Virus record (IMG/VR): IMGVR_UViG_3300050821_010761
Coordinates: 104,808 to 168,807 of that record
Length of the DNA stretch: 64,000 nucleotides
Source: a virus
Lineage: Duplodnaviria > Heunggongvirae > Uroviricota > Caudoviricetes
Reading direction: 5' to 3' (one strand)
The position numbers and the translations under genes are program-made. The first letter of the stretch is position 1. Every line of letters begins with the position of its first letter. Shown here in pieces: positions 27,428-63,107 of the stretch. Under the pieces are notes generated by a model. The model was not told the DNA's origin. It saw only the letters and a list, made by a program, of their open reading frames with translations, and ran no database searches.

Positions 27428-27430
27428 AAA

Positions 27431-49179: not shown

Positions 49180-50997
49180 ATGGAATTGCTTTTGTTTTAT
49201 GGTCTTTATGCACTTGGCTTTTTGACGTTGCTCGTTGCAACTTACAAAGCCCTCGGTATCGTTGTTGTAGGGGATTCTGAAGTTGGCATCGTAACAAAGA
49301 AGATCTCTCGCAAGAGTCTTCCCCCAGGTCAAGTTATCGCCCAAAACGGCGAAGCAGGCGTTCAAGCAGAAACGCTATCTCCTGGATGGCACCTAGGATT
49401 TTGGCCCGTAGTCTTCAAGGTTGATAAGGTCCCTCTCACTAATATCGAACCTGGAAACATCGGTCTCGTTATGGCTATCGATGGACAACAGATCGCTAGT
49501 AATCGAATCCTTGCAAAAGAAGTCGATTGTAATAACTTCCAGAGCGCTGGAGCATTTCTTAAAAACAACGGCGAAAAGGGTAAACAGCTTGCAATTCTTA
49601 CGGCTGGTAAGTACCGTATTAATACTTCACTTTTCAAGGTCACAACTGCTCCCGTGACTGTTATTGGCTCAAACACGGTCGGCGTTGTAACGACTTTCGA
49701 CGGAATTCCTCTCGATGGAGGAGAAATCGCTGGTGCCACGATCACTGGTCACAACTCCTTTCAAGACATCCAAAAATTCATTGATGCAGGTGGCAAACGC
49801 GGCCTCCAAGAACAAGTCATATTGGCTGGTCAATGGAACCTCAATCCTTGGTTCGTAAATGTAAAAGCGGTCGAAATGACCACGGTTCCGATTGGTCACG
49901 TGGGCGTAGTGACTTCTTACGTAGGCAAGGCTCACCTTGACATCTCTGGCGACACTTTCAAACACGGCGATCTGGTCGAACAAGGGCATAAAGGTGTGTG
50001 GGCAACTCCCCTTTATCCTGGAATGCACCCAATCAATACGGCTACAATGAAAGTGGATTTGATCCCGACCACTAACGTGGTCCTGAACTGGGCAACAAAC
50101 CGCAATGAAGCCCACCAGTTGGATAAAAATCTGTCCAGCATCACGGTCCGTTCTAAAGACGGTTTCTCTTATAATCTAGATGTTTCTGTGGTTATCCATA
50201 TTGGTGCCAAAGAGGCTGCTCGCGTGATCTCACGCATGGGCTCTATGTCTGGTCTTATCAGCCAGGTCCTTGAACCCACAATCGGCAACTACTTCCGTAA
50301 TTCCGCTCAAGAAACGGCAGCGCTGGATTTCTTGAAATCGCGTACCCAGATGCAACAAAGCGCCGCCAAATATGTTGGCGAAGCCTTGACTACATATGAT
50401 GTTGAAGCCGTCGATACTCTGATTGGTGATATTGTTCTGCCGCAAGCTTTGCTTGAAACCCAAACTCAGCGTAAATTGGCGGAAGAGATGCAGAAAACTT
50501 ATGAGGTTCAACAAGAATCTCAGAAACAAAAAGAAGCTTTGAATCGTCAGACTGCCATCACTGAAATGCAGACTAGCGTTGTTCAGTCAGAACAGAACGT
50601 TAAGATTGCTCAACAGGAAGCTGAAGCTAAGGTCAAAGCCGCAGAAGGTGATACTAAGGTAGCAGAGCAGAAATCCTTGCAGACTATCCGTTTGGCTGAA
50701 GCGTCTGCCTCTGAGATCAAGCAAAAAGCGGTCGCAGAAGCCGAAGGTATCAAAGCCAAAGGTAACGCGCAAGCTGAAGCCTACAAGTCTGGTGTTAATG
50801 CTATGGGCGAAAACAACTTTACTCTGCTTGAGACCATGACAGCGATTGGTCGCGAAAAGATCAAGATTATCCCAGATTTAGTCGTTAATGGTGGTGGCAG
50901 TGGTCAAGACGGTGGTGCAAATGGTATCTTGTCAGTCTTGATGGCTTCGATGCTCAAAGACAAGATGGCGGCAGAAAAGACCCTTAAACAGCAGTAG
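49180..50997 (+). CDS. flotillin-like SPFH/band-7 protein (YqiK/FloT-like)
   Basis: N-terminal TM, SPFH-like core and a long Ala/Glu/Gln-rich flotillin-type coiled coil (AEAEGIKAKGNAQAEAYKSG). 605 aa. Confidence 0.75.
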   Translation: MELLLFYGLYALGFLTLLVATYKALGIVVVGDSEVGIVTKKISRKSLPPGQVIAQNGEAGVQAETLSPGWHLGFWPVVFKVDKVPLTNIEPGNIGLVMAIDGQQIASNRILAKEVDCNNFQSAGAFLKNNGEKGKQLAILTAGKYRINTSLFKVTTAPVTVIGSNTVGVVTTFDGIPLDGGEIAGATITGHNSFQDIQKFIDAGGKRGLQEQVILAGQWNLNPWFVNVKAVEMTTVPIGHVGVVTSYVGKAHLDISGDTFKHGDLVEQGHKGVWATPLYPGMHPINTATMKVDLIPTTNVVLNWATNRNEAHQLDKNLSSITVRSKDGFSYNLDVSVVIHIGAKEAARVISRMGSMSGLISQVLEPTIGNYFRNSAQETAALDFLKSRTQMQQSAAKYVGEALTTYDVEAVDTLIGDIVLPQALLETQTQRKLAEEMQKTYEVQQESQKQKEALNRQTAITEMQTSVVQSEQNVKIAQQEAEAKVKAAEGDTKVAEQKSLQTIRLAEASASEIKQKAVAEAEGIKAKGNAQAEAYKSGVNAMGENNFTLLETMTAIGREKIKIIPDLVVNGGGSGQDGGANGILSVLMASMLKDKMAAEKTLKQQ

Positions 50998-51003
50998 GAA
51001 GTC

Positions 51004-51672
51004 ATGCGCGTCATAAGTAAGTTTAAGGACTACTACGATGGCGTTATGAAAACGGGCATGGACAGAGAAGTTGTCTATGTCCGCGAGAACAAAGAGATAG
51101 AATTAGAAGAAAGTTATGGGGTAGATTTTTCTACCCAAAACTCCCCGAGATACAGCAACATTGAACTGGTGATTCTTGGCTATTGCGGTAAAATCTACAA
51201 AATTTATACCGTAACTACCTCTCTTAATACAGAAAAAGAAAAACACGTTTTTCACGACTTTGAATCCTTCAGAAAGTTCATGATGCGTTATCAAATTGCC
51301 AGCAAATGGGATTTTGAAAAGCGTAGATATTACCCTAGCGATTATCAGAAATTCGAAGCTTTAGATGGTAGCAGACTAATAGAACTTTTTCATAAATATC
51401 AGACGCCCTTATTTATAGTCTCGCACATCCATAGATATCGAACCAAAAGCAAAACGACTCTGACACTTGGTCCATGTTTGAAGGATCTGGAATTTTACCA
51501 AATCAAGGACACTTATGCCGCCTATCAAGATATTTTTCAATATGTTGCTGGTACATTGAATAGGCCAGAAAATAAGATGGTGGAAATTTCTGATGAAGAC
51601 AAGGTATCCAAACACGGTTTTGACAAATGGTCATTCCGTAAATTGCCTACTAAGAAAAAGGATAAAAAATGA
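51004..51672 (+). CDS. hypothetical protein (222 aa)
   Basis: RBS GGAAG. Basic C-terminus. Confidence 0.45.
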   Translation: MRVISKFKDYYDGVMKTGMDREVVYVRENKEIELEESYGVDFSTQNSPRYSNIELVILGYCGKIYKIYTVTTSLNTEKEKHVFHDFESFRKFMMRYQIASKWDFEKRRYYPSDYQKFEALDGSRLIELFHKYQTPLFIVSHIHRYRTKSKTTLTLGPCLKDLEFYQIKDTYAAYQDIFQYVAGTLNRPENKMVEISDEDKVSKHGFDKWSFRKLPTKKKDKK

Positions 51673-51914
51673 ATAATGCCGATGATTTAAATTCAAAAAC
51701 TACCGATGAACTGGTTCAAATATTTATCGATAGCGTTCAAAACGCCTATGATCGCATATGGGTTGAATCTGCCACCGAAGAACAGCTGGACAAACTGGGG
51801 AAAACTAGTGGACTGGTCCGTCAGTGTGATCACGAATGGGTGACATGGACTGGTCTTCATGGTACCATCACAGACTGCACTAAATGCAAACAGGTCAAAG
51901 CGGATGGTATATGA
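51669..51914 (+). CDS. hypothetical Cys-containing protein (81 aa)
   Basis: ATGA overlap both sides. Confidence 0.35.
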   Translation: MNNADDLNSKTTDELVQIFIDSVQNAYDRIWVESATEEQLDKLGKTSGLVRQCDHEWVTWTGLHGTITDCTKCKQVKADGI

Positions 51915-52435
51915 AAGTCCTATTTCTCGATTTCGATGGAGTTCTGAATTCTCAACAATCAGAGATTTTCTGGCACAATAAACGTGACCAATCGCTGTGG
52001 GAAAATGAGATGTACAAGTCTTGGCACGGTACTCTTAAAGAATATATTGCACATGAATTTTGTCCCATTGCTATGTCCAATGTGGAAGAGTTGATTCGGA
52101 GAGTTCCAGATCTCAAAATCGTGATTTCTTCTTCTTGGCGCCATGGAGAAACTATCGAAACATTGAAGAAAATTCTTCACCCTTCCAAACTCATTGCCGA
52201 TGCCATAATTGACGTCACTCCGTATTTTCGCGGAGATAAGCCGCGTGGTGCTGAAATTCAAGATTGGCTTGATAGGCACACAGAAGTGTCGCACTATGTG
52301 ATATTAGATGATGATCGCGATATGTTAGAAAGTCAGAAAGATAATTTTATTAACACGTCCCCTTTCCATGGATTCCAATACGGAGACATGCTTTGGGCCT
52401 TAAGAATACTTGGCCACGCGGATAGGCAATATTAG
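51911..52435 (+). CDS. small HAD-superfamily phosphatase, paralog A (HAD_SAK-like)
   Basis: HAD motif I LFLDFDGVLN, motif II VISSSWR, motif III R-G-EI, motif IV VILDDD. Paralogous to 55912-56454 and 62682-63107. Confidence 0.6.
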   Translation: MKVLFLDFDGVLNSQQSEIFWHNKRDQSLWENEMYKSWHGTLKEYIAHEFCPIAMSNVEELIRRVPDLKIVISSSWRHGETIETLKKILHPSKLIADAIIDVTPYFRGDKPRGAEIQDWLDRHTEVSHYVILDDDRDMLESQKDNFINTSPFHGFQYGDMLWALRILGHADRQY

Positions 52436-52442
52436 GAGGAAA

Positions 52443-52655
52443 ATGATTACATTAGTTTGTTCCATCTTGATTACCGTTAATGGCGGCGGATTTGGTATAG
52501 CATCCAAGGCTGACGTTGAAGGGAAACTCATCAGTCAATCGGATACTAAATACCTTGTAGATTTCAGCGATGGTGTCAAAAAATTTGATATTTTCGGAAA
52601 ACCAAGTAATTATGACGAAGTCTTAGTTGACAAGTCTGATTGCGTAAAGAAGTAA
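52443..52655 (+). CDS. small secreted/membrane protein
   Basis: Start at MITLVCSILITVNGGG, hydrophobic N-terminus. Confidence 0.3.
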   Translation: MITLVCSILITVNGGGFGIASKADVEGKLISQSDTKYLVDFSDGVKKFDIFGKPSNYDEVLVDKSDCVKK

Positions 52656-52656
52656 T

Positions 52657-52866
52657 ATGCTACATTATTTAGTGGAATGGGGCCACATCTATCTGATTCA
52701 TGTCGGCGTACTAACTGGTTTATTGATGATTGATAATGTGCGTCGAGAAGGGTTACCATTTCCCAACAAAATGCTGATATTCAAACCCTTGGTATGGGCG
52801 CTCATATTGGCAGTCTTCTCCAGTCATAGTCACGCGCACTACCTTAATCACTTTGTTTCAAAATAG
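52657..52866 (+). CDS. small two-TM membrane protein
   Basis: Hydrophobic VLTGLLMI and VWALILAVF segments. Confidence 0.3.
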   Translation: MLHYLVEWGHIYLIHVGVLTGLLMIDNVRREGLPFPNKMLIFKPLVWALILAVFSSHSHAHYLNHFVSK

Positions 52867-52868
52867 TA

Positions 52869-52897
52869 TTGACAATGCAATTTTTATACTATAGTAT
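52869..52897 (+). promoter_or_regulatory. consensus-like sigma70 promoter (TTGACA-N15/17-TATAGT/TAGTAT) for Fis-type regulator gene
   Basis: Perfect TTGACA -35 hexamer. Gene start 21 nt downstream with RBS AAGGAAGG. Confidence 0.45.
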
Positions 52898-52917
52898 GTG
52901 TAAATAAGGAAGGTAAA

Positions 52918-53124
52918 ATGGAAAATCAACAAACAACAGTTATCGATGTAACCAATCTCCCCACTTTGCAGGAATTGGAACGTCAGTATTTGAACTTGGT
53001 CTTGGGCAGAACCTCTGGAAGCAAGGCAGAAGCCGCCAAAATCCTTGGCGTTAGCGTAAAGACGGTTTACAATAAACTTGACGCATACAAAGAGCAAATG
53101 ACGTCTACTGTCACACAGTCGTAA
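52918..53124 (+). CDS. Fis-family helix-turn-helix DNA-binding protein
   Basis: C-terminal KAEAAKILGVSVKTVYNKL matches the Fis/NtrC-type HTH. Confidence 0.5.
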   Translation: MENQQTTVIDVTNLPTLQELERQYLNLVLGRTSGSKAEAAKILGVSVKTVYNKLDAYKEQMTSTVTQS

Positions 53125-53345
53125 TGAAACATGATAAAAAAGACGAACCTGTCATTAGGTTGGACGTCACTGGCAATCTAACCCAGGAAATCATAGAAGA
53201 AGCTGCTCTTAGGTCCGCTCAAAATATGGGTCCAGCCCAAGACATGTGGATACCTGGAGTTGGTTGGATCATGAGGCATGGCGAGATTACTCAAGCTGGT
53301 TACGATTGGCTTGAACAGGAATACGGCAATAAAGAGGATAGGTAG
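53124..53345 (+). CDS. hypothetical protein (73 aa)
   Basis: TAATG overlap start. Stop TAG at 53343-53345. Confidence 0.35.
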   Translation: MKHDKKDEPVIRLDVTGNLTQEIIEEAALRSAQNMGPAQDMWIPGVGWIMRHGEITQAGYDWLEQEYGNKEDR

Positions 53346-53347
53346 TT

Positions 53348-53977
53348 ATCATCTACTTCACATCAGACACACATTTTTGGCACAAGAATGTTATCAGACT
53401 GTGTAGCCGTCCATTTGCACATCTGCACGAGATGCATGAGTACATGATCGATGAATGGAATAAGCGCGTCAGAAAGCCTACGGATAAAATTTATGTTTTG
53501 GGAGACTTCTCGTTTGCCAATGGCACAATGACAAGGCCCATACTTGAACGTCTAAACGGCTATAAAATATTGATTGCTGGCAATCATGATAGGCATGCCA
53601 AGCATATGTTGGATATGGGTTTTCAAGAAGTACACGAGAACATTTGGATTGAGATTGGTAATAAACAGAAAGTTTTCTTGAGCCATTTTCCTTTCCATCC
53701 GATGAATGCTTATGGCAAATATCCAGATGGCCGTATTGAAATTGGTTATCCATATGAGAAGATAGACACGCGCTACATGCATAAGCGTATTGTAGACGAT
53801 GGTACGCAGTGGTTGATCCACGGACATGTCCACGGTGCATGGAAACAGAATGGTCGTCAAATTAATGTTGGTGTGGATGTTTGGGATTTTAAGCCAGTTT
53901 CACATGAAAAGATTCTACAGATTATTAAAGCTGGACCAAAATTTGAGGGAAAATCCACAGACGATTACGGAGATTAA
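53348..53977 (+). CDS. calcineurin-like metallophosphoesterase (start codon unresolved)
   Basis: Motifs GDFS, GNHD and HGHVHG are present. Motif I (IIYFTSDTHF) lies in-frame upstream of the first ATG (53432), in a stretch with no ATG/GTG/TTG after a TAG at 53339. Confidence 0.55.
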   Translation: MIYFTSDTHFWHKNVIRLCSRPFAHLHEMHEYMIDEWNKRVRKPTDKIYVLGDFSFANGTMTRPILERLNGYKILIAGNHDRHAKHMLDMGFQEVHENIWIEIGNKQKVFLSHFPFHPMNAYGKYPDGRIEIGYPYEKIDTRYMHKRIVDDGTQWLIHGHVHGAWKQNGRQINVGVDVWDFKPVSHEKILQIIKAGPKFEGKSTDDYGD

Positions 53978-53978
53978 T

Positions 53979-54260
53979 ATGGAAAAAGAACTTAGTGCAG
54001 AACAAAGGAAACAATTAAGTAAAGTAGGAAGAACGTTTTTTCTAAAATCGTTTTTTAATGGAGTGCAGCACGCCATAATGCTGATGCTGGTAAATTTTAT
54101 TTTGGTTATGTCTGCACAAATTTTCGATATTCCAGAACCACTCGCTTTCATTGTAGCACTTGTTGGGGGCTTTTTTGTTATCCGCAGAATGTTCTCGATT
54201 AACTTTGAAAATTATGATAGATTCAAGAACGAAATCAAAGCAATCTTAGAACCAAAATAA
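53979..54260 (+). CDS. membrane protein (94 aa)
   Basis: TAATATG overlap start. Two TM segments. Confidence 0.35.
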   Translation: MEKELSAEQRKQLSKVGRTFFLKSFFNGVQHAIMLMLVNFILVMSAQIFDIPEPLAFIVALVGGFFVIRRMFSINFENYDRFKNEIKAILEPK

Positions 54261-54276
54261 AAATTAGGAGACATCG

Positions 54277-55905
54277 GTGAAATCCGCCTTTGATGTATTT
54301 TCAAGTAAATTTGCTCAAGATATTTATTTGCAGAAGTATTCAAAAGATGGAGTTGAAAACTGGGCTGATACAGCGCGAAGAGTCGTAGAAGCTGTATGCT
54401 CTCAACTTCTAGATAGTAAAACAAAAGAAAAAATTTATAACGCAATTGTAGATAGAAAATTTATTCCTGGCGGTCGATACCTCTACTCTGCTGGCAGAGA
54501 ATTTCACCAGACAAATAACTGTTTTCTCTTCCGTGCGGAGGATTCCAGGGAAGCTTGGGCAGAAAATATGCACAAGATCACCGCTTCTTTAATGACGGGC
54601 GGCGGTATTGGAGTTGACTACAGTAGGTTAAGACATGAAGGCGCCGTAATTAAGCGCACTGGTGGCACATCGACTGGTCCTATAGCTTTGATGAATATGA
54701 CTAATGAAGCAGGGCGTTATATTATGCAAGGTGGCCAACGGAGATCGGCAATCTGGGCTGGACTTCTTTGGTCTCATCCCGACATATTCAAATTCATGAA
54801 TCAAAAGAATTATTCAGAAGATATGAAAGCGATGAAGCTTAAAGATTTTAATTTTCCTCTGCCGATGGAATTGACAAACATCTCCATAATTTACGATACA
54901 GAATTCTTTATCGCCATAGACAATCTAGAGCACGCAAAACATGAATTAGCTAATCGTGTATGGTTGGAAAACTGCAAACAAGCATTTGCTACGGCTGAAC
55001 CTGGAATGAGTTTCAATTTCCGAAAAGATAATGAGTCACTGCGCAATGCCTGCACTGAAGTTGTCAGTGAAGACGATTCAGATAAATGTAATCTTGGTAC
55101 GATTTGGATCAATCGCATCAAGACAAAGAACGAGATGGCTGAAATGACGAAACTTTCAACGCTTTTTCTTCTTTGTGGTGGTATTTATAGTCACACTCCC
55201 ACTGATAGGATCAAAGAAGTAGGAAACAAGAATAACAGGATCGGTCTTGGTCTTGGCGGCATTCATGAATGGCTAATGACGCGCAACCATGACTATGAGG
55301 TCGTACCAGAATTGCACAAATGGTTGTCTGTTTACGAGCAAGAATCGGATTCCGCAGCCTTCATTGGTGCTAAGCAGTTGGGAGTTTCGGTGCCTAAGGG
55401 CGTAAGGGCGATTGCTCCTACTGGAACTATAGGAATTATTGCAGAAACTACCACGGGAATCGAACCTTTGTTTTGTAAATCATACAAAAGACGTTATAGG
55501 AATTCCGAGGGCGAGTGGGTATTTCAATATGTGGTGGACGGTACCGTAAAACGACTGCTCGATCAGGGCGTGAAACTAGATGCGGTGAAAGATTCTTATG
55601 ATCTGAACTTTAAACAGCGCGTTAAATTCCAAGCGGATGTGCAAAACTACGTGGATATGGCCATTTCCAGTACTTGCAATATGCCACAATGGGGATCGGA
55701 TGCAAATAATGAGCAAAATTACGAGAAAAATGCCAAAGTCTTACTTAAATATGCAAAAAGACTGCGCGGATTTACTGTCTATCCCAATGGATCGCGCGGG
55801 GGACAACCTCTGACGAGCGTTCCTTTAGAAGAAGCTCTCAAAGATGAAGGAAAAGTATTCGAGGAGACGGAGAATACTTGCTTGAATGGAGTTTGCGGGC
55901 TATAA
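54277..55905 (+). CDS. nrdJ: ribonucleotide reductase, probably class II (adenosylcobalamin-dependent, monomeric)
   Basis: RBS AGGAG plus GTG. RNR signature segments SLMTGGGIGVDYSRLR, RNACTEV, CNLGTI and APTGT. C-terminal Cys pair CLNGVC. No beta-subunit gene nearby. Confidence 0.7.
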   Translation: MKSAFDVFSSKFAQDIYLQKYSKDGVENWADTARRVVEAVCSQLLDSKTKEKIYNAIVDRKFIPGGRYLYSAGREFHQTNNCFLFRAEDSREAWAENMHKITASLMTGGGIGVDYSRLRHEGAVIKRTGGTSTGPIALMNMTNEAGRYIMQGGQRRSAIWAGLLWSHPDIFKFMNQKNYSEDMKAMKLKDFNFPLPMELTNISIIYDTEFFIAIDNLEHAKHELANRVWLENCKQAFATAEPGMSFNFRKDNESLRNACTEVVSEDDSDKCNLGTIWINRIKTKNEMAEMTKLSTLFLLCGGIYSHTPTDRIKEVGNKNNRIGLGLGGIHEWLMTRNHDYEVVPELHKWLSVYEQESDSAAFIGAKQLGVSVPKGVRAIAPTGTIGIIAETTTGIEPLFCKSYKRRYRNSEGEWVFQYVVDGTVKRLLDQGVKLDAVKDSYDLNFKQRVKFQADVQNYVDMAISSTCNMPQWGSDANNEQNYEKNAKVLLKYAKRLRGFTVYPNGSRGGQPLTSVPLEEALKDEGKVFEETENTCLNGVCGL

Positions 55906-55911
55906 TGAATT

Positions 55912-56454
55912 ATGAAAGTAATTTTTTTAGACTTTGATGGCGTTTTAAATTCAGCTACCTCCTTTCTTTACGAAGTGAATCGCCGTAATAAACACAAAGA
56001 ACAGGGCGTAAAGGGTCCAGTCAACGAAACTCTATCTTTACATTGCTGCGCAGCATTCCAATTTGTATTAGATCAGTATCCAGACGTTAAAGTAGTGCTT
56101 TCCACTACCTGGCGCACTATGTTCACCATAGATTGGTTAAAAGCCAAGCTTGAAGAGTATCACATTGATTCATCTCGCGTTATCGATAAGACACCACAGA
56201 CTTTTGGCGGTAATAGAGGTCGCGAGATCGAAATTTGGCTACGTGATCATCCAGAAATCACGCATTTCGTGGCCATTGATGACAATGACGATGGCATATC
56301 TGCCTATTTCGGCAAGGATCGTTTCGTCCAGACGGATTGGGAACGTGGCATGGGCGTACAACATGCTGCCGAACTATGCGAAAAACTTTCTGCCAAAAAT
56401 CTTAAAAAAGTTAAAGAAAGACTGAAAAAAGAAGCCAAGGAAGATGAGGAATAG
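55912..56454 (+). CDS. small HAD-superfamily phosphatase, paralog B (HAD_SAK-like)
   Basis: VIFLDFDGVLNS, VVLSTTWR, RG-EIEIWL and VAIDDNDD motifs. Confidence 0.6.
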   Translation: MKVIFLDFDGVLNSATSFLYEVNRRNKHKEQGVKGPVNETLSLHCCAAFQFVLDQYPDVKVVLSTTWRTMFTIDWLKAKLEEYHIDSSRVIDKTPQTFGGNRGREIEIWLRDHPEITHFVAIDDNDDGISAYFGKDRFVQTDWERGMGVQHAAELCEKLSAKNLKKVKERLKKEAKEDEE

Positions 56455-57338
56455 TGGACTTAATCGACCGCCTATCTAGCAAGGGTCTCATTAAACCTCC
56501 GCCCCATGTTTTAGGTGGCACGCATTATTTGACCATAATGGGTTCCCAAGCTTATGCTGTAAATACTGATGACTCCGATCTAGACATTTATGGGTGGTGT
56601 ATTCCTGCCAAGGACATGATTTTTCCGCACCTGCGCGGCGAGATACTTGGTTTTGGTTACCAAACTCAGAGATTCGAACAATTTCAACAGCATCATGTCC
56701 AAGAAAAAGATCACAATAAAGAATACGATCTTAATATCTACAATATTGTCAAATACTTCCAGTTGGTAATGGATAATAATCCGAATATGATTGATTCTCT
56801 GTTCACTGATGAAACTTGCGTAATCAAATCCACAAAACTGTCCAATCACGTTCGCGATAATAGAAAAACTTTCCTTTGCAAAAAAGCCTGGCACACTTTT
56901 AAGGGTTATGCCTACGCTCAGATGAAGAAAATGCGTACCAAGGAGCATAACAAAGAAGGTGTAAGATACCACATGATCGAGAAGTACGGGTATGATGTAA
57001 AATTTGCTTATCATGTAGTTCGTCTACTGAATGAAGTAGAAATGATTCTAACTGAGCACGATCTGGATTTACGTCGCAACAACGATCAGCTGAAAGAGAT
57101 CCGTGCTGGTCAATGGACTATGGATCAGATCGAACAATATTTCCTCATTAAGGAACGATCTTTAGAGGAAACGTACGCCAAATCTACTCTTCGCAATCGA
57201 CCAGATGAGCCAGCTATCAAGAAAATCCTTCTTGAGGTTTTAGAGGAACATTTTGGGACGTTGCAGGGTATGGTTGAGACTGCCGATTATTACAAAGATA
57301 TGCTGAGACAAATCCAGCAGATTGTGAGCAAAGTATGA
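56454..57338 (+). CDS. Pol-beta-superfamily minimal nucleotidyltransferase
   Basis: GS...DSDLD motif (GSQAYAVNTDDSDLDIYGW) typical of the NTase fold. Embedded in the RNA-repair gene neighbourhood. Confidence 0.5.
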   Translation: MDLIDRLSSKGLIKPPPHVLGGTHYLTIMGSQAYAVNTDDSDLDIYGWCIPAKDMIFPHLRGEILGFGYQTQRFEQFQQHHVQEKDHNKEYDLNIYNIVKYFQLVMDNNPNMIDSLFTDETCVIKSTKLSNHVRDNRKTFLCKKAWHTFKGYAYAQMKKMRTKEHNKEGVRYHMIEKYGYDVKFAYHVVRLLNEVEMILTEHDLDLRRNNDQLKEIRAGQWTMDQIEQYFLIKERSLEETYAKSTLRNRPDEPAIKKILLEVLEEHFGTLQGMVETADYYKDMLRQIQQIVSKV

Positions 57339-57453
57339 CAAAAGAAGCTGTGATGTTTTCTAGCTCTGTAATCATTTCAACGTTGTTATTTGGTCTTGGG
57401 ACCACGCCAGCCCTATTTATTTTCGGCTTCATTTGGTTACTTTGGGGCGAACC

Positions 57454-57834
57454 ATGAAGTTCATCGTGGCAGGCAGCAGGACCATTCAGGAAATTACGGC
57501 TTATGGTCAGCTGGTAGAATTGCGTATTGCTAAAACGCATCCATTTTGTAATGCAACAGAGATCGTTTCTGGTACCGCCAAAGGACCAGACAAAGCTGGC
57601 GAGATCTATGGTGATTTCTATGGTATCTCCGTTACTAAATTTCCTGCAGAATGGGATAAGTATGGCAAACGTGCTGGTCCGATAAGAAACAATAAGATGG
57701 CAGTCTATGCCGATGCCCTACTTTTGATTTGGGACGGTCAGTCAAAAGGATCTAGACATATGAAACAAGCCATGCTAACATTGAATAAACCAGTGTTCGA
57801 GCTTATTTTGGAGCCATACAATGAAACGAAGTGA
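57454..57834 (+). CDS. SLOG-superfamily (DprA/LOG-like, DUF2493-type) protein
   Basis: N-terminal VAGSRTI Gly-Ser-Arg motif, SGTAKGPDKAGE and WDGQSKGSRH pattern. Confidence 0.4.
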   Translation: MKFIVAGSRTIQEITAYGQLVELRIAKTHPFCNATEIVSGTAKGPDKAGEIYGDFYGISVTKFPAEWDKYGKRAGPIRNNKMAVYADALLLIWDGQSKGSRHMKQAMLTLNKPVFELILEPYNETK

Positions 57835-58024
57835 AATGTTAAAAATCATTGAAGGTTTATTCAATTTGGCACCTAGGTTTGACAATGAAACTAACGCAGA
57901 GAATCTTTTGTCTACCTTGGAAGAAATAGGAATGCGTCCTCCATATAATGCCAGTGAAGATGATGGAGTAGATAGTTTTGAGTGGGAATCGGAAGAAGAA
58001 TTTCCTAGAAGTGGAGCGGTGTAA
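57821..58024 (+). CDS. acidic hypothetical protein (67 aa)
   Basis: Overlapping starts/stops with neighbours. Confidence 0.3.
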   Translation: MKRSEMLKIIEGLFNLAPRFDNETNAENLLSTLEEIGMRPPYNASEDDGVDSFEWESEEEFPRSGAV

Positions 58025-58941
58025 TGCCAACCCTATTCCTTTTGGTCGGTCCTCCAGGATCTGGTAAATCCACTTTTGCTAAGAACCAGATCGAAAATGG
58101 CGGCGATTTAGGTGCTGAATGCACATACGTAAATCAAGATTCTCAAGGCAAGCTTCAGCACATGGAGAATTTTCGAGAAGCGCTTCGTAATGAAAAAGAT
58201 GTATTTGTTGATCGCATGAATTTCAATCGCGCACAACGCCTTGGATACATCGAGCAAGCAAGAAAGGCTGGTTACGATGTCAAGATCCACGTTTTCCATG
58301 TTCCCTACTCGGAATGCTTGAAGCGTGCGTCTGAGAGAATTGGACACGAAACCATCCAGGATGCCGCCACAGCAGAAAAGGCAATACGATTTTTCTTCAA
58401 GTCTTATGAGAGAGTAGAAGACTGGGAAGCCGATGAAGTGATTCGCCATTATATGGAGGGCGATAAACCTAGTGCAATCTGGGTAGACCTAGATGGTACT
58501 CTATGTAATTGCGATCATAGAAGACATCATGTGCGCACCGAGAATAAGAAGAAGGATTGGTTAGCATTTTTTGGGGGCATCAAGGACGATACGGTAAACG
58601 AACCCGTGGCCAGTGTTCTAAGATCTATGAGTTGTGAGCGTGCCATAGTTTACTGTTCTGGACGGGGAGAAGAATACAGAAGCGCAACAGAACAATGGCT
58701 CAATAAACATCATCTGGATCGTTTTTATGATCCGTTGTTTGAAAGCTATACGTATGCTCATCTTTATATGAGACTTGCTGGAGATTCCAGGCAAGATTTT
58801 ATTGTAAAAGAAATTCTTTTGGACTTTGAGATACTTCCTAGATTTGCAATAGATTTTTGTCTTGATGATAGAGATCAGGTTGTGAAGATGCTTAGGGGCA
58901 GAGGATTGACAGTCTTTCAGGTAGCATATGGAGATTTTTAA
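58024..58941 (+). CDS. pseT: polynucleotide 5'-kinase/3'-phosphatase (T4 PseT-like)
   Basis: P-loop LVGPPGSGKST kinase domain plus HAD phosphatase IWVDLDGTL. C-terminal FQVAYGDF matches T4 Pnk VASGDF. Confidence 0.85.
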   Translation: MPTLFLLVGPPGSGKSTFAKNQIENGGDLGAECTYVNQDSQGKLQHMENFREALRNEKDVFVDRMNFNRAQRLGYIEQARKAGYDVKIHVFHVPYSECLKRASERIGHETIQDAATAEKAIRFFFKSYERVEDWEADEVIRHYMEGDKPSAIWVDLDGTLCNCDHRRHHVRTENKKKDWLAFFGGIKDDTVNEPVASVLRSMSCERAIVYCSGRGEEYRSATEQWLNKHHLDRFYDPLFESYTYAHLYMRLAGDSRQDFIVKEILLDFEILPRFAIDFCLDDRDQVVKMLRGRGLTVFQVAYGDF

Positions 58942-59135
58942 TGGCACCCATTGTTTTGTATCATTCTAAAACCAACAATATTGTAGTCCTAGAACCCAAT
59001 GTAGGCGAATATTGGATGAATTTTAGGATTATAACTCGTTCAGAATACGAATACCCTACTGCGTGCAGCGGATATTACGATGGTAATTTGGCTTCTTTTC
59101 TAGATGCTGGATATGAGATTGTAGGAGATTTTTAA
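58941..59135 (+). CDS. hypothetical protein (64 aa)
   Basis: TAATG overlaps. Confidence 0.3.
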   Translation: MAPIVLYHSKTNNIVVLEPNVGEYWMNFRIITRSEYEYPTACSGYYDGNLASFLDAGYEIVGDF

Positions 59136-59434
59136 TGCTTAAGATCAGAGAAGCCAAAAAAGAACTAGCAGAGAAATCGTACAGGGATATTCAAGAATCT
59201 ACAGCATGGACCTGGGCATCTCGGGGCGTGGCAAGTTATCAAAATGTCATGATCGTAAGCAAAGACAAGAAAATGGCTTATTATTTATTGGCTGAGGAAT
59301 ATTCTCATGAGGCTCGCGAACACGCTGCTCTGGTAGAAGCTGGTGCATCCAGTCTTTTGAGCCAGGTACAAGCTGCTATAGTGCCACATGCTCTAAAAGC
59401 ATGGAATCACATCGAAGATGAGTTTGGCATATGA
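59135..59434 (+). CDS. hypothetical protein (99 aa)
   Basis: ATGA overlap with the RNA ligase gene. Confidence 0.3.
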   Translation: MLKIREAKKELAEKSYRDIQESTAWTWASRGVASYQNVMIVSKDKKMAYYLLAEEYSHEAREHAALVEAGASSLLSQVQAAIVPHALKAWNHIEDEFGI

Positions 59435-60507
59435 AATACGAGATCGAAGCCTTTGAAGTTTTGGTGAAAGATGGTTATTTGAAAAGGGCTGAAAAGGGCG
59501 ACCTAGTTCTTTACGGCTATACTGATAAGACAACTTTCGAGCGAGCTTGGCAAACCAAGTACACACGCGATGCCCGTGGCATCATATTGAACAAAAATAC
59601 TGGCGAAGTCGTCGCTAAGACATTCAAAAAATTCTTCAATCTTAACGAGATGGAAGAAACACAATTGAAAAATTTACCAAATGAGCAATACGAAGTTTTT
59701 GAGAAATACGACGGCTCCATGGGTACAGCCTTCTTCCATGACAATGACTGGCACATGGCCACTCGTGGAAGTTTTACATCAGAACAAGCACTCCGTGGCC
59801 TTGCAATATTAAATAAAAACTATAATATTTCGAGACTTGATCCTAATTGCACCTATCTTGTAGAGATTATCTACCCAGAGAATAAAATAATCGTAGATTA
59901 TGGCGATAAAGAAATGCTTGTGCTGCTTGGCGTTTTCCACGTTCCCACGGGCGACGAATTGTCTTTTCAGACAGTTAGGTGCATAGCGCAAGTTACGGGA
60001 ATGCCATGTGCAGTGCAATATTTTCACACAATAGAACAGATGATCGAATTACAGAAAACGATGCCAAAAGACGAAGAGGGCTTCGTCGTTCGCTTTGAAT
60101 CTGGTTTGAGGGTAAAAATCAAAGGCGAAGAATATATGAAAATCGCCAAGATGATTTCTCAGATGTCTCCGATTTCCTTTTGGGAGTCCATGGAGAATGG
60201 TAAGGTTAAGAAAGATTATTTGCAACAGCTTCCAGAAGAGTTTAGAAAAGAATACGAGCCAATGGTAGAGAGACTCGAAAGTCTCTACGAGAAAACGTTG
60301 TTTGAAATTGCTACAGAACAGACTAAATTGCCTATTACGGAACTGAAAGATAGGAACGATCGTAAGAATCTTGGCTTGTACTTATCTAGTGGCAAGCACG
60401 ATCTTAAGCATGCTTCCGTTATGTTTGCTGTGGTCTTAAAGCAATGGGAAACGGTCAACTCATATATTATGAAGTTGATTAGGCCCACTGGAAACGTTTT
60501 GTCATGA
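59431..60507 (+). CDS. rnlA: ATP-dependent RNA ligase, T4 Rnl1-type
   Basis: Nucleotidyltransferase motif I KYDGSMG. The N-terminal RGIILNKNTGEVVAKTFKKFFNLNE block closely matches T4 Rnl1 (RGIMFE...KFFNLNE). Confidence 0.8.
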   Translation: MKYEIEAFEVLVKDGYLKRAEKGDLVLYGYTDKTTFERAWQTKYTRDARGIILNKNTGEVVAKTFKKFFNLNEMEETQLKNLPNEQYEVFEKYDGSMGTAFFHDNDWHMATRGSFTSEQALRGLAILNKNYNISRLDPNCTYLVEIIYPENKIIVDYGDKEMLVLLGVFHVPTGDELSFQTVRCIAQVTGMPCAVQYFHTIEQMIELQKTMPKDEEGFVVRFESGLRVKIKGEEYMKIAKMISQMSPISFWESMENGKVKKDYLQQLPEEFRKEYEPMVERLESLYEKTLFEIATEQTKLPITELKDRNDRKNLGLYLSSGKHDLKHASVMFAVVLKQWETVNSYIMKLIRPTGNVLS

Positions 60508-60878
60508 AGGTATTGTTTGTTGGTGATAGACCAAGCAGATTAAATAAGGACCCCAAAATCGCTTTTGTTGGCACTCCTTCTTATAAGAATTTGTTGAGAT
60601 GGATCAAAAGAATGGGAGGCATCACTGATTTCTCTGCCATCAACAGTCATGATGGTATAGATAGATCCGCAATAGCGGATTGCTGGCGTTCTGGTGGAAA
60701 AGTTGTTGCCTTGGGCAATAACGCTAGCAAAAGATTGACAAAAATTGGCATAGAACATTTTAAGCTTCCTCATCCAAGCCCATTGAATAGACAATTGAAT
60801 AATGAATATTTTATTGAGGAAAAACTGTGGGAGTGTTATTCTTATCTAAAGGAGACGTCTCGTGTGTATAATTTGTAG
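60504..60878 (+). CDS. miniature uracil-DNA-glycosylase-superfamily-like protein
   Basis: FVGDRPS (motif A-like) and HPSPLN (motif B) are present. Only 124 aa. Confidence 0.4.
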   Translation: MKVLFVGDRPSRLNKDPKIAFVGTPSYKNLLRWIKRMGGITDFSAINSHDGIDRSAIADCWRSGGKVVALGNNASKRLTKIGIEHFKLPHPSPLNRQLNNEYFIEEKLWECYSYLKETSRVYNL

Positions 60879-61062
60879 AAATCTGAATCATTTAACTTCT
60901 GAAGAAGCTATGCGCAATATTGGTGAAATGCTTATTGGGGCAAACAAAGAACATTCAAAACATTTGATGGATTTAGCTAGTAGAATTTTGGATAAGGACG
61001 TACCTATCGTCGATGCTGATTCAGACATGGATGAAAATTGGGAGAGGGAGCATAGGGAGTGA
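60862..61062 (+). CDS. hypothetical protein (66 aa)
   Basis: Packed array. No recognisable motifs. Confidence 0.3.
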   Translation: MCIICRNLNHLTSEEAMRNIGEMLIGANKEHSKHLMDLASRILDKDVPIVDADSDMDENWEREHRE

Positions 61063-61063
61063 A

Positions 61064-61387
61064 ATGAGCGTTTTGGATTCTTTAATAGTTTTCAGCTGTA
61101 TGAGTTTGTCTGGACAACAAAATATAGCTTGCAACAAAGCTCTTCAAGCTGGATCAAAACAAACACAAGTGGATCAGACTTTTAATGGCTACGAAGATCA
61201 TCAGCTGAAATTGATGGAAAAAGATGCCACTACGTTGGTTGGCCAAGATTCTTTGCAAACTATCGGAGGAACGGTGTGGTTAACCAAATCGATAGTGGAG
61301 AAAAAGGCTGATTTTGGTATAGCTAAAGATGTGGTAATGGAAATCAACATGCGCCTTGGGGAATTGATATTAAAATGGAAGTTTTGA
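61064..61387 (+). CDS. hypothetical protein (107 aa)
   Basis: RBS GGGAG plus ATG (MSVLDSL). Confidence 0.35.
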   Translation: MSVLDSLIVFSCMSLSGQQNIACNKALQAGSKQTQVDQTFNGYEDHQLKLMEKDATTLVGQDSLQTIGGTVWLTKSIVEKKADFGIAKDVVMEINMRLGELILKWKF

Positions 61388-61857
61388 AATTTCCACATCC
61401 AAATCTTTTCATTAAATGCAAAGAAGTCACCGTATTTGGTCCTGAACTGAAAGTTTTATTAGAATCGATGTGGGATACGATGATATCTAAGAACGGAATG
61501 GGTCTAGCCAGTAATCAGGTCGGTTTGGATTATCGCATGTTTACTATGAAGGGTCCAGAAGAAGAAAAACTATTCATCGTCAACCCAAAGATTTTGGTGA
61601 GCGGTCGTGCACAGGCAAATTTAAAAGAAGGCTGTCTCAGCGCTCCAGGCGAATTTCTGATTCTTGGTGAGCGTGCTATGTGGGTACAGATCCTCTATCA
61701 AGATGAAACTGGGGCACCTCACAGCCAAACGTTTGGCGGCATACACTCTGTTTGTGTGCAACATGAAATTGATCATTTAGATGGAAAATCGCATCTACAA
61801 TCAAAATCTCTTACTAGGCGCGTGAGGAGAGAAATGAAAAGAAAATGGGGCGTATGA
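61375..61857 (+). CDS. def: peptide deformylase
   Basis: All three PDF motifs: GMGLASNQVG, EGCLS and HEIDHLDG. Confidence 0.8.
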   Translation: MEVLKFPHPNLFIKCKEVTVFGPELKVLLESMWDTMISKNGMGLASNQVGLDYRMFTMKGPEEEKLFIVNPKILVSGRAQANLKEGCLSAPGEFLILGERAMWVQILYQDETGAPHSQTFGGIHSVCVQHEIDHLDGKSHLQSKSLTRRVRREMKRKWGV

Positions 61858-61999
61858 TGGAGAATTTAGATAAAAGGACCAGATCACAGCGATGGTCTGA
61901 TAATATTGCGGAATTCTGTGGCTCGTGGGGATTTGTTGAACGTGATAGAGAAAATGTGAATGGTATACATGCTAAATTAGACAAATTATTGGAGAAAAA

Positions 62000-62647: not shown

Positions 62648-62681
62648 TTTTTACATTTGCCAGACAAGGAATCTTATACCA

Positions 62682-63107
62682 ATGAAGATCCTTTTCCTCG
62701 ATTTTGACGGCGTAATTAAGCCTTTATACAAAGACTTTTCGAAAGAGGCATGCAAACTAGTCAACGATCTTTTGATTAAAGAGCCAGGGCTACGCATAGT
62801 CGTATCATCAAGTTGGCGTGTGTATGGTCTTCAAGAGGTTCGTGGCATTTTGAGAGAACTGGGAATAGATCCTATCAAAGTAATTGACGTCACTCCTGGC
62901 TTTCCAGAGCACGGTTTAAAAACTCGCGATCACCATATTAAGGTGTGGCTTAGGAATCACCCAGTAGACAATTTCGTGATTTTGGACGATGAGGCAGAAA
63001 TGCCTGATTTCAAGAAAAAGTATGTCAATACTGATTCTAATATTGGCTTGACTGAAAAAGATGCCGAACGAGCGCTCAGCATCCTAGAAAAGTCCAGTAA
63101 ATACTAG
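62682..63107 (+). CDS. small HAD-superfamily phosphatase, paralog C (HAD_SAK-like)
   Basis: ILFLDFDGVI, VVSSSWR, TR-HHIKVWL and VILDDE motifs. Confidence 0.6.
   Translation: MKILFLDFDGVIKPLYKDFSKEACKLVNDLLIKEPGLRIVVSSSWRVYGLQEVRGILRELGIDPIKVIDVTPGFPEHGLKTRDHHIKVWLRNHPVDNFVILDDEAEMPDFKKKYVNTDSNIGLTEKDAERALSILEKSSKY

Follow-up and report, generated by a model that had tools for sequence, protein, structure and literature searches.

The question raised by this locus is whether eight genes of a phage, encoding three small HAD phosphatases, a metallophosphoesterase, a SLOG protein, a nucleotidyltransferase, a Pnkp and an RNA ligase, work together in RNA repair, and whether such a set is new, as a preliminary description had proposed. 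The source is a T4-like uncultured phage of about 170 kb, of which we have analyzed a window (the whole stretch of DNA, 64,000 nucleotides), and the repair genes sit in its conserved early nucleotide-metabolism cluster.

Gene content of the locus

The relevant features, by position in the window, are the following:

51911..52435, + strand: HAD1, standalone HAD_SAK_2 phosphatase, 174 aa (PF18143, 2.5e-29)
53348..53977, + strand: calcineurin-like metallophosphoesterase, 209 aa from the ATC at 53348 (phrog_547, 3.2e-52; PDB 1xm7, 1.6e-14)
54277..55905, + strand: class II (B12-type) ribonucleotide reductase, RNR (Ribonuc_red_lgC, 5.6e-47, and RNR-II_ins_dom)
55912..56454, + strand: HAD2, standalone HAD_SAK_2 phosphatase, 180 aa (PF18143, 2e-27; phrog_1818)
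56454..57338, + strand: RlaP, RNA-ligase-associated Pol-beta nucleotidyltransferase, 294 aa (PF10127, 3e-18; phrog_388, 1.2e-42)
57454..57834, + strand: YAcAr-like SLOG protein, 126 aa, AGSR motif (PF10686, 2.2e-4, 21.4 bits, under the Pfam gathering cut-off of 28.2; phrog_289, 1.8e-20)
57821..59434, + strand: span of the small ORFs g67 (57821-58024), g64 (58941-59135) and g99 (59135-59434), with start/stop overlaps with Pnkp and Rnl1
58024..58941, + strand: Pnkp, 5'-kinase with C-terminal HAD 3'-phosphatase, 305 aa (AAA_33, 5.4e-15; HAD_PNKP, 5.7e-33)
59431..60507, + strand: Rnl1-family ATP-dependent RNA ligase, 358 aa (PF09511, RNA_lig_T4_1, 4.3e-23; phrog_562, 2.8e-57)
62682..63107, + strand: HAD3, shortest HAD_SAK_2 paralog, 141 aa (PF18143, 1.4e-24)

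The ORFs named in the preliminary description are all on the + strand and free of internal stops, and its calls of Pnkp, Rnl1, the nucleotidyltransferase and three HAD paralogs are confirmed by Pfam and, concordantly, by PHROGs (phrog_1818 for each of the three HADs, phrog_388, phrog_505 and phrog_562). The Pnkp has the P-loop GPPGSGKST, matches Pnkp1 (PDB 4xrp, 2e-19) and T4 Pnkp (1ltq, 6.3e-17), and shares the invariant residues G12, G14, K15, S16 and D155xD157xT159 with its relatives (nine homologs). The ligase matches T4 Rnl1 (2c5u, 1.8e-12) and, over residues 39-344, TIGR02308 (5.4e-22, under the equivalog cut-off); K92xD94G95, T111-R112-G113, E145, E216-G217 and K229xK231 are invariant, which covers K92xDG together with motifs Ia, III, IV, and V. 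The nucleotidyltransferase is RlaP, with G30-S31, D42xD44, and D92 invariant in nine homologs, and its closest cultured relatives (47-50% identical) are found in Caulobacter and Rhizobium phages. The PF10127 match rules out an antibiotic-type transferase. According to a 2025 preprint (PMC12776372), RlaP extends damaged RNA 3'-OH ends by 1-2 NMP, and the enzyme is predicted here to restore 1-2 nucleotides at an RNA 3'-OH end that has been trimmed. This identity also rules out a CCA-adding enzyme, and thus the CCA/3'-end rebuilding that had been suggested is dropped.

The PF18143 matches of HAD1, HAD2, and HAD3 all exceed the Pfam gathering score, and the three proteins keep HAD motifs I-IV (DxDGV, S/T, R, DD), which in HAD2 read DFDGV, S/T, R, and DD; in the alignment the helical insert that follows motif I is largely missing from HAD3. 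HAD1 has more than 1000 homologs, its orthologs on phage contigs of 100-171 kb being 60-84% identical, and its AF2 model has a pLDDT of 92.9. The Pfam search assigned the three proteins to HAD_SAK_2 and not to 5'-nucleotidase models. We found no solved structure and no published assay for HAD_SAK_2 relatives, and a fold search did not tell substrate classes apart. That these paralogs would be protein phosphatases acting on host or phage phosphoproteins is given very little credence.

The metallophosphoesterase and SLOG calls also hold. The Pfam scores of the former (Metallophos_2, 21.8 vs. 27 bits; Metallophos, 20.8 vs. 21.5) are, like that of the SLOG protein, under the gathering values, but both assignments were kept because of phrog_547, PDB 1xm7, phrog_289 and a SLOG ortholog that scores as YAcAr. 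The metallophosphoesterase ORF is present as described but needs a non-canonical ATC start; the first canonical start, at 53432, would lose catalytic motif I, and the motif series DTH, GD, GNHD, H, GHVH is complete only with the N-terminal extension. This protein is a candidate 2',3'-cyclic phosphodiesterase/phosphatase or nucleotide phosphoesterase. The SLOG protein conserves G7, R9, GxAxGxD, and WDG.

The region is not the pure RNA-repair block that had been described (51911-60507). The third HAD gene falls outside that range, the class II RNR lies inside it, and genes encoding a UDG-like protein, PDF, ThyX, and dUTPase flank it. The RNR is outside RNA repair and marks the nucleotide-metabolism backbone that hosts the repair genes. 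The corresponding block of metagenomic relatives is a conserved cluster of RNR, NT5C, UDG, PDF, ThyX, and dUTPase (RNR being followed by NT5C), within which Pnkp, ligase, and RlaP are variably present.

The genes are tightly packed on the same strand, with junction overlaps (TAGTG, TAATG, ATGA) running from HAD2 through UDG. The HAD2 TAG stop overlaps the RlaP GTG start (TAGTG), and the Pnkp gene falls within the span of the small ORFs, with TAATG or ATGA junctions. Rnl1 overlaps the UDG-superfamily gene in the same style, so such overlaps are not function-specific. The g67, g64, and g99 products had no match in Pfam or PHROG; in relatives, g99 is conserved alongside Pnkp and ligase, its homologs lying between these two genes in one locus (L005) and adjoining SLOG, UDG, or HAD2 in three others (L007, L004, and L090). 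The promoter and terminator scan gave a signal no higher than background. A Thg1-SpoU methylase gene pair is located 38 kb away.

Linkage of the repair genes in related phages

We have surveyed 56 dereplicated IMG/VR loci around HAD_SAK_2 homologs, with a reach of 10 kb. RlaP was found 145-2430 bp, Pnkp 1.3-5.9 kb, and Rnl1 1.2-3.4 kb from the HAD gene, i.e., closer than a uniform 0-10 kb spread (P = 0.002, 0.0014, and 0.005, respectively), although a single phage clade accounts for many of the linked loci and synteny by descent therefore inflates the apparent linkage. The ThyX distances in this census did not depart from the uniform spread (P = 0.88), and those of dUTPase look uniform as well. 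The three repair genes were absent within 10 kb from 44 of the 56 loci. A census centered on Pnkp (36 groups) contained Rnl1 in 14 groups, HAD_SAK_2 in 11 (all within 4.6 kb), and RlaP in 7.

HAD2 is the paralog most closely tied to the repair genes, since its orthologs have Pnkp within 3 kb in five of six unique loci and RlaP in four of six. The order (NT5C)-HAD-RlaP appears in L056, L026, L081, and L090, followed by Pnkp and ligase except in L026, where the locus ends at RlaP. Other orders are metallophosphoesterase-x-Pnkp-Rnl1-RlaP-x-x-HAD (L013), RlaP-Rnl1-x-x-x-HAD (L014), and metallophosphoesterase-Pnkp-x-Rnl1-x-HAD (L020), and the same slots are filled by two RlaP subtypes and two ligase families. 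The linkage of HAD2, RlaP, Pnkp, and ligase recurs across several gene orders and outlasts rearrangement. The recurring HAD_SAK_2 neighbors in a Pfam census (two batches, about half of the sample) included RNA_ligase, RNA_lig_T4_1, RlaP, HAD_PNKP, PolyA_pol, 2H phosphoesterase, and Thg1.

One ensemble or a nucleotide-metabolism setting

The proposal that all eight genes form one multi-substrate RNA healing and sealing system, with the paralogs splitting end chemistries or target RNAs, seems to us unlikely as a whole. The three HADs do belong to a family whose name refers to RNA-repair "Swiss army knife" proteins, and their old lineages (34-40% mutual identity in the alignment) each show 44-84% conservation in relatives, in keeping with subfunctionalisation. 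The metallophosphoesterase, the most frequent HAD_SAK_2 neighbor among the families tested (15 of 56 groups), adjoins Pnkp in L020, is one gene from it in L013, and is two genes from RlaP in Rhizobium phage RHph_I1_18. The SLOG gene is within 1.2 kb of Pnkp in four of the five Pnkp groups having it, and HAD1 adjoins Pnkp-Rnl1-RlaP in L013 and L014. However, HAD1, the metallophosphoesterase, and SLOG occupy the same slots, syntenic with RNR, NT5C, PDF, and ThyX, in close relatives (L007/L008/L012 and L004) where none of Pnkp, RlaP, and ligase lies within about 10 kb; HAD1 stays there beside the metallophosphoesterase and RNR, and L012 has SLOG without a local Pnkp. HAD3-type orthologs follow PDF (six of eight loci), dUTPase (3/8), and ThyX (3/8), with Pnkp in 2/8. 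RNR and unrelated genes break up the block, and the YAcAr SLOG family is predicted to process NAD+ or nucleotides, not to repair RNA (Iyer et al., 2021, PMC7824862, section 3.4.8). What stands of the ensemble is the linked HAD2-RlaP-Pnkp-ligase group; the place of HAD1 in the repair pathway is unproven.

A possible, if doubtful, alternative is that only Pnkp, Rnl1, and RlaP repair RNA, and that the HAD_SAK_2 paralogs, the metallophosphoesterase, and the SLOG protein act on nucleotides or derived small molecules (dNMP/NMP pools, NAD-derived or cyclic-nucleotide defense signals), being located here because the region is a phage nucleotide-metabolism cluster. HAD2 is immediately downstream of RNR, HAD3 comes after ThyX and converges with dUTPase, and the dNMP phosphatase NT5C occurs in or beside the HAD2 slot of relatives. 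RNR, ThyX, or dUTPase lie within 10 kb in 18 of the 56 HAD loci, against 12 with repair genes, and the Pfam neighbor census also contains NAPRTase, NAD synthase, NMNAT-like, and NUDIX genes. Cultured T4-like phages do not have the HAD homolog next to repair genes; that of RB43 is near two 5'-3' deoxyribonucleotidase genes, and that of Vibrio phage D479 is near NAD-salvage genes. Against this, the profile-profile alignment of the HADs with NT5C covers motif I only (14 columns), compared with 75 columns for the Pnkp HAD domain, and the HAD domains of some Pnkp homologs (P0138, P0203) also score on PF18143. NT5C and HAD2 are immediate neighbors in L026 and L056, and NT5C adjoins the more diverged HAD in L081; the HAD is therefore not a simple NT5C replacement. 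The short distances of RlaP, Pnkp, and Rnl1, set against the uniform-looking ones of ThyX and dUTPase, also speak against this alternative.

Proposed pathway and known systems

We consider, with a probability of about 0.7, that the region holds a phage module, of a described kind, for the repair of broken RNA (probably tRNA) within a nucleotide-metabolism cluster, and that its core of HAD2, RlaP, Pnkp, and Rnl1 would heal, rebuild, and seal the broken ends. We infer the substrates, the order of the steps and any role of HAD_SAK_2 proteins on RNA as follows. A host ribotoxin, such as a PrrC- or RloC-like anticodon nuclease, would leave 2',3'-cyclic phosphate or 3'-phosphate and 5'-OH ends, sometimes minus a nucleotide. 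Pnkp would phosphorylate the 5'-OH, and its HAD domain would clear the 3'/2' phosphate to a 3'-OH, probably with the adjacent HAD2, predicted to remove such phosphates from RNA ends, and possibly with the metallophosphoesterase. RlaP would restore 1-2 nucleotides where the toxin had trimmed the end, and Rnl1 would then join the 3'-OH to the 5'-phosphate. HAD1, HAD3, the metallophosphoesterase, and the SLOG protein may plausibly assist, but metabolism of nucleotides or NAD-derived small molecules fits them equally. The first interpretation is supported in part: the families are ones with a predicted or demonstrated part in healing, rebuilding, and sealing RNA ends, but a single ensemble is not supported.

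The claim that this combination was not a described system has to be withdrawn. Jumbo-phage RNA repair has been described as comprising Rnl1/Rnl2 with PNK-HAD, standalone "Swiss-army-knife" HAD, calcineurin-like phosphatases, and RlaP (Iyer et al., 2021, PMC7824862, section 3.4.9), and Burroughs and Aravind (2016), cited therein, had already placed these families in phage RNA repair. The T4 pathway, taken before as a two-enzyme one, is not limited to two enzymes, since T4 has its own RlaP, NrdC.11 (PMC12776372). The same families are present here, and this is a real set of RNA-mending genes that is a new example of a kind described by comparative genomics and not a new system.

The repair gene block and its setting

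According to the ORF listing and the Pfam and PHROG scans, the 49-63 kb region of the window is a dense array of genes on the + strand. The preliminary description had proposed an RNA-repair block in this region, and the block proved to be real with small corrections, as judged by its family matches, intact catalytic motifs and overlapping junctions. It contains the following genes:

Genes of the block (coordinates, strand, description and family match)
51911-52435, +, HAD1, standalone HAD_SAK_2 protein (2.5e-29)
53348-53977, +, MPE, calcineurin-like metallophosphoesterase (phrog_547, 3.2e-52; Pfam under cut-off)
54277-55905, +, compact class II ribonucleotide reductase (RNR), 542 aa (Ribonuc_red_lgC, 5.6e-47)
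55912-56454, +, HAD2, standalone HAD_SAK_2 protein (2e-27)
56454-57338, +, RlaP, RNA-ligase-associated Pol-beta nucleotidyltransferase (3e-18)
57454-57834, +, YAcAr-like SLOG protein (phrog_289, 1.8e-20; Pfam under cut-off)
58024-58941, +, Pnkp, kinase-HAD end healer (AAA_33 + HAD_PNKP, 5.7e-33)
59431-60507, +, Rnl1, RNA ligase of the T4 RnlA type (4.3e-23)
60504-60878, +, UDG-superfamily protein, 124 aa (PF03167, 6e-08)
61375-61857, +, peptide deformylase (PDF)
62000-62647, +, ThyX
62682-63107, +, HAD3, standalone HAD_SAK_2 protein (1.4e-24)
63104-63604, -, dUTPase

Three HAD_SAK_2 paralogs are thus found within 11.2 kb. ATGA junctions link the ORF g81 to HAD1, the small ORF g99 to Rnl1, and Rnl1 to the UDG gene; TAATG junctions link g67 (57821-58024) to Pnkp, Pnkp to g64 (58941-59135), and g64 to g99, and the HAD2/RlaP junction is TAGTG. 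The gap between RNR and HAD2 is 6 nt (55905-55912). Since the UDG gene also overlaps the Rnl1 stop codon, a start/stop overlap alone is no sign of shared function. A promoter and terminator scan gave a signal not exceeding the shuffle expectation and did not delimit transcription units.

The rIIA and rIIB homologs in the window (26429-29554, - strand) indicate a large T4-like phage (~170 kb, uncultured). A megablast search with positions 51000-63700 found no match among deposited phages. No tRNA genes were detected within the 64-kb window, despite its enzymes of the tRNA-repair type. An SPFH/Band 7 protein of 605 aa (49180-50997) is encoded immediately upstream of the block, and a CarD-like transcription factor is encoded at 39218-39676 on the - strand.

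Catalytic motifs of the encoded enzymes

Pnkp carries an N-terminal P-loop (GPPGSGKST) and a C-terminal HAD motif (D155-L-D157-G-T159), both invariant in the homolog alignment, and its best solved structures in a PDB search were Pnkp1 (4xrp, 2e-19, full length) and T4 Pnkp (1ltq, 6.3e-17). Rnl1 keeps motifs I (K92-x-D94-G95), Ia (T111-R112-G113), III (E145), IV (E216-G217) and V (K229-x-K231), which are invariant in 6 homologs, and scores 82.8 bits on PF09511 (cut-off 28.3 bits). On the NCBIfam equivalog TIGR02308 it reaches 78.4 bits over residues 39-344, under the 242-bit cut-off, and its PDB alignment with T4 Rnl1 (2c5u, 1.8e-12) ends at residue 268. The search for related loci with the single Rnl1 protein as query returned no loci, alignments being required as queries. 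RlaP scores 66.9 bits on PF10127 (cut-off 23 bits) and shows the invariant Pol-beta nucleotidyltransferase core residues G30, S31, D42, D44 and D92 in the homolog alignment. PDB sequence and profile searches with this RlaP found no relative. Rnl1 lies 2.1 kb downstream of RlaP on the same strand, and RlaP is also near Rnl1 or Pnkp in the IMG/VR loci L013, L014, L056, L081 and L090.

The three standalone HADs share pairwise identities of 34-40%, and all keep motif I (DFDGV), the S/T of motif II, the arginine of motif III and the DD of motif IV; D7, D9, S73, R112, D133 and D134 are invariant across 33 sequences. Their PF18143 scores (102.9, 96.7 and 87.4 bits) exceed the 27.5-bit cut-off. The AF2 model of HAD1 (pLDDT 92.9) has the HAD Rossmannoid core and, past motif I, a three-helix insert of ~35 residues that is mostly missing from HAD3. 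In profile-profile comparisons, HAD_SAK_2 aligned over 75 columns with the phosphatase domain of Pnkp, a stretch that takes in the insert, and over only the 14 columns of motif I with an alignment of the phage 5'(3')-deoxyribonucleotidase NT5C (hhalign), both with weak scores. No match of the paralogs to PF06941 (NT5C) was obtained at E <= 0.01. The phosphatase domains of two Pnkp homologs of normal length, P0138 and P0203, score on PF18143 too, pointing to a close relationship between the PNK-HAD and SAK-HAD families. Because the literature search found no paper on HAD_SAK/PF18143 and the profile search found no PDB sequence relative, a function of the standalone HADs on RNA stays a prediction.

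The position of NT5C right after RNR in relatives had raised the idea that HAD2 replaces NT5C. Simple replacement was rejected: NT5C and HAD2 adjoin in L026 and L056, and NT5C lies beside a more diverged HAD in L081, so the HAD is not a mere NT5C substitute. NT5C occupies the RNR-HAD2 slot in L056 (9561-10004) and L026 (10377-10826), and follows RNR without HAD2 in L012 (9860-10387). No NT5C was found at this slot of the window, nor among ORFs of at least 120 aa in its first 49 kb.

The MPE motifs DxH, GD, GNH[D/E], H and GHxH are complete only when the start is placed at ATC 53348. Motif I (FTSDTHFWH) is lost both from a product begun at the first ATG (53432), which lies downstream of it, and from that of the public gene call (start at 53444). 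A Shine-Dalgarno sequence, AAAGAGGAT, is located at 53330-38, ~10 nt before ATC 53348, and an in-frame TAG stop at 53339-41. A full-length MPE would need initiation at ATC 53348 or at 53351; the alternatives are a rare start codon of non-canonical type and a truncated enzyme without activity. The Pfam scores of MPE fall below the cut-offs (21.8 bits vs 27 and 20.8 vs 21.5), and its matches to phrog_547 and to PDB entry 1xm7 (1.6e-14) favour membership of the calcineurin-like family. The SLOG protein likewise scores 21.4 bits on YAcAr (PF10686), under the 28.2-bit cut-off; with its phrog_289 match and an ortholog in L007 that has a precomputed PF10686 match, it is probably a divergent YAcAr member.

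The 99-aa product of g99 (59135-59434), in the gap between Pnkp and Rnl1, has no Pfam or PHROG match. Relatives 34-46% identical to it are encoded in L005 (20220-20501), L007 (15728-15985) and L004 (19881-20171). In L005 the gene lies between Pnkp and a ligase of a different family, and elsewhere it is found beside SLOG, UDG or HAD2; g99 may be an uncharacterised accessory of the gene cluster.

Linkage in relatives and in the wider census

HAD1 has more than 1000 homologs, and its orthologs, 60-84% identical, are on metagenome contigs of 100-171 kb. The conserved backbone of these relatives is HTH_8 - HAD1 - MPE - RNR - NT5C - ... - SLOG - g99 - (UDG) - PDF - ThyX. L007, L008 and L012 (~171 kb contigs) have this backbone but no Pnkp, RlaP or ligase within ~10 kb, and L004 is similar; L005 has, in the same slot, Pnkp - g99 - a ligase of another family (PF09414 + PHA02142). 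The occurrence of the backbone with or without repair genes indicates that the latter act as a variable insertion within a cluster of nucleotide-metabolism genes. The presence of HAD1, MPE and SLOG does not hinge on repair genes close by. A single expanded ensemble, in which all the parts would belong to one RNA-repair system, is unlikely beside this independence. RlaP comes in two subtypes, of which one carries an insert of ~85 aa, and both are found at the same position across relatives. The swapping of components at fixed positions (ligases, RlaP subtypes) is compatible with a functional module.

Some further observations were made in these loci. The post-Pnkp slot of L005 (20516 onward), which corresponds to that of Rnl1 in the window, encodes the PF09414 + PHA02142 ligase of 421 aa, and the corresponding slots of L090, L078 and L032 contain ORFs of 399-427 aa. 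The RNR of L004 (13585-16650; 158 kb JGI contig) is 1021 aa long and has matches to an intein and a LAGLIDADG homing endonuclease.

The wider census covered 79 IMG/VR loci centred on HAD_SAK_2 homologs, dereplicated to 56 groups and searched with iterative HMMs built from the window proteins.

Genes within 10 kb of a HAD_SAK_2 homolog (groups, distance, P against a uniform distribution over 0-10 kb)
Pnkp: 9/56, 1.3-5.9 kb, P = 0.0014
Rnl1: 5/56, 1.2-3.4 kb, P = 0.005
RlaP: 6/56, 145-2430 bp, P = 0.002
MPE: 15/56, 0-9.6 kb, P = 0.04
RNR: 9/56, 0.4-7.2 kb, P = 0.054
ThyX: 9/56, 1.7-8.5 kb, P = 0.88

At least one repair gene was present within 10 kb in 12 of the 56 groups, and RNR, ThyX or dUTPase in 18; the counts are small and many of the linked loci belong to one clade, so that shared descent feeds the linkage signal. 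Around Pnkp (36 dereplicated groups), Rnl1 was found in 14, HAD_SAK_2 in 11 (always within 4.6 kb), RlaP in 7 and SLOG in 5. The HAD homolog of cultured T4-like phages does not adjoin repair genes. The gene order of the HAD-centred loci varies by lineage:

Gene order in four loci (x, unlabelled gene)
L056: MPE - NT5C - HAD2 - x - RlaP - x - x - Pnkp - x - x - Rnl1 ... PDF - HAD3 - x - dUTPase
L013: MPE - x - Pnkp - Rnl1 - RlaP - x - x - HAD1
L014: RlaP - Rnl1 - x - x - x - HAD1
L020: MPE - Pnkp - x - Rnl1 - x - HAD

Pfam searches with 282 neighbouring proteins (two of four batches; the other loci were searched by local HMMs for a fixed family list only) recovered RNA_ligase, RNA_lig_T4_1, RlaP, HAD_PNKP, Metallophos, PolyA_pol, 2H phosphoesterase and Thg1 as recurring families, and likewise families of NAD salvage and nucleotide metabolism. 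When the HADs were typed by their best match to the window paralogs and neighbours were counted within 3 kb, the three types differed.

Neighbours within 3 kb of each HAD type
HAD2-type: Pnkp 5/6, RlaP 4/6, RNR 3/6, NT5C 3/6
HAD3-type: PDF 6/8, dUTPase 3/8, ThyX 3/8, Pnkp 2/8
HAD1-type: MPE 2/7, RlaP 2/7, Rnl1 2/7

The HAD2-type is associated with repair genes, and the association is weak for the HAD1-type (2/7) and the HAD3-type (2/8). HAD1, HAD3, MPE and SLOG, outside the HAD2-RlaP-Pnkp-Rnl1 core, may be auxiliary to the repair pathway, and a place in the metabolism of nucleotides or NAD-derived small molecules fits them equally. The specific proposal that these parts have a nucleotide-phosphatase role is rated as rather unlikely: the neighbours of the HAD3-type agree with it, and the HAD_SAK_2 profile aligns with NT5C at motif I only.

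A second RNA-end repair/modification pair is located 38 kb from Pnkp. It consists of a Thg1-family 3'-5' nucleotidyltransferase (19438-20337, - strand; PF04446 7e-30, phrog_4717 3.7e-83) and a SpoU-family RNA 2'-O-methyltransferase of 150 aa (19005-19457, - strand; PF00588 1.2e-22), whose genes overlap by 20 nt. NCBIfam did not resolve the subfamily of the SpoU methylase, and the adjacency was found in 0 of 59 other IMG/VR Thg1 loci. The pair widens the RNA-end toolkit of the phage and recalls Hen1 in the bacterial Pnkp/Hen1 systems. One could imagine that the three anciently diverged HAD_SAK_2 paralogs partition RNA-end chemistries or target RNAs and, with RlaP (3'), Thg1 (5') and SpoU, form a layered system that heals, rebuilds, seals and immunises against nucleotide-excising anticodon nucleases. 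We regard this reading as quite improbable. If true, the phage would have its own equivalent of bacterial Pnkp/Hen1, extended by further steps.

Proposed pathway and comparison with known systems

The locus most likely encodes a pathway of known type that heals, rebuilds and seals broken RNA, based on the family membership, intact motifs, start/stop overlaps and recurrent linkage observed here. Pnkp would yield the 5'-P and, together with HAD2 and perhaps MPE, a clean 3'-OH; RlaP would put back one or two lost nucleotides, and Rnl1 would close the break. We infer the substrates and the order of the steps by reference to T4 Pnkp/Rnl1 and to the preprint on RlaP (PMC12776372).

The extended RNA-repair toolkit predicted for phages is represented here by a compact and intact locus. 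Its discovery value is small, because the ensemble and its logic are already published, and the main interest is an experimental handle on the uncharacterised HAD_SAK_2 family. HAD1, HAD2 and HAD3, which differ in their neighbours and in the insert following motif I, are clean candidates with which standalone HAD_SAK_2 proteins could be assayed for the first time. If the phosphatase activity of HAD2 were directed at RNA ends and that of HAD3 at nucleotides, this would show how reliable a guide the Pfam name is for hundreds of phage homologs.

The 2016 work of Burroughs and Aravind (NAR 44:8525) is reportedly the basis on which Iyer and colleagues built. The RNA repair of jumbo phages was described by Iyer, Anantharaman, Krishnan, Burroughs and Aravind (2021; Viruses 13:63, PMC7824862, section 3.4.9), and the window shares with that repertoire the ATP-grasp Rnl1, the PNK-HAD Pnkp, the standalone "Swiss-army-knife" HAD, a probable calcineurin-like phosphatase and RlaP, as well as Thg1, encoded elsewhere in the window. 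It differs in coming from an uncultured T4-like phage of ~170 kb, in having three HAD_SAK_2 paralogs, and in the interleaving of its genes with those of RNR, UDG, PDF, ThyX and dUTPase. The earlier claim that no such ensemble had been described was therefore wrong, since its families and logic are already in that section and in PMC12776372.

With T4 PseT/RnlA, which repairs tRNA-Lys against PrrC, the window shares the kinase-HAD Pnkp and an Rnl1-family ligase with all the nucleotidyltransferase motifs. RlaP is also common to both, T4 NrdC.11 being an RlaP (PMC12776372), and the contrast drawn with a two-enzyme T4 pathway was overstated. Compared with T4, the window sequences are highly divergent (the ligase has 78 bits vs the 242-bit TIGR02308 cut-off, and its C-terminal region is unaligned to T4 Rnl1 in the PDB search), and the genes form a cluster linked through start/stop overlaps, with extra HAD and MPE genes.

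The heal-and-seal logic is like that of bacterial Pnkp1-Rnl-Hen1 and Pnkp-Hen1, Pnkp1 (4xrp) being the closest structure. Unlike these systems, the window has no Hen1, and its sole RNA 2'-O-methyltransferase candidate is the 150-aa SpoU-family protein encoded 38 kb off, beside Thg1. As to RlaP, the enzyme of Pseudomonas adds one or two NMPs to RNA 3'-OH ends and has been proposed to restore, before ligation, the nucleotides cut out by "smart" ribotoxins such as RloC (Carruthers, Fatma and Huang, December 2025 preprint, PMC12776372). The window RlaP belongs to the same family as that of the Pseudomonas RtcB-RlaP-RtcA operons, with the GS/DxD/D catalytic set, and the same role would be proposed for it. 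Unlike in those operons, its partner is the 5'-P/3'-OH ligase Rnl1, which avoids the 3'-OH/RtcB incompatibility discussed in PMC12776372, and the locus thus offers a phage RlaP partnered with a 5'-P ligase.
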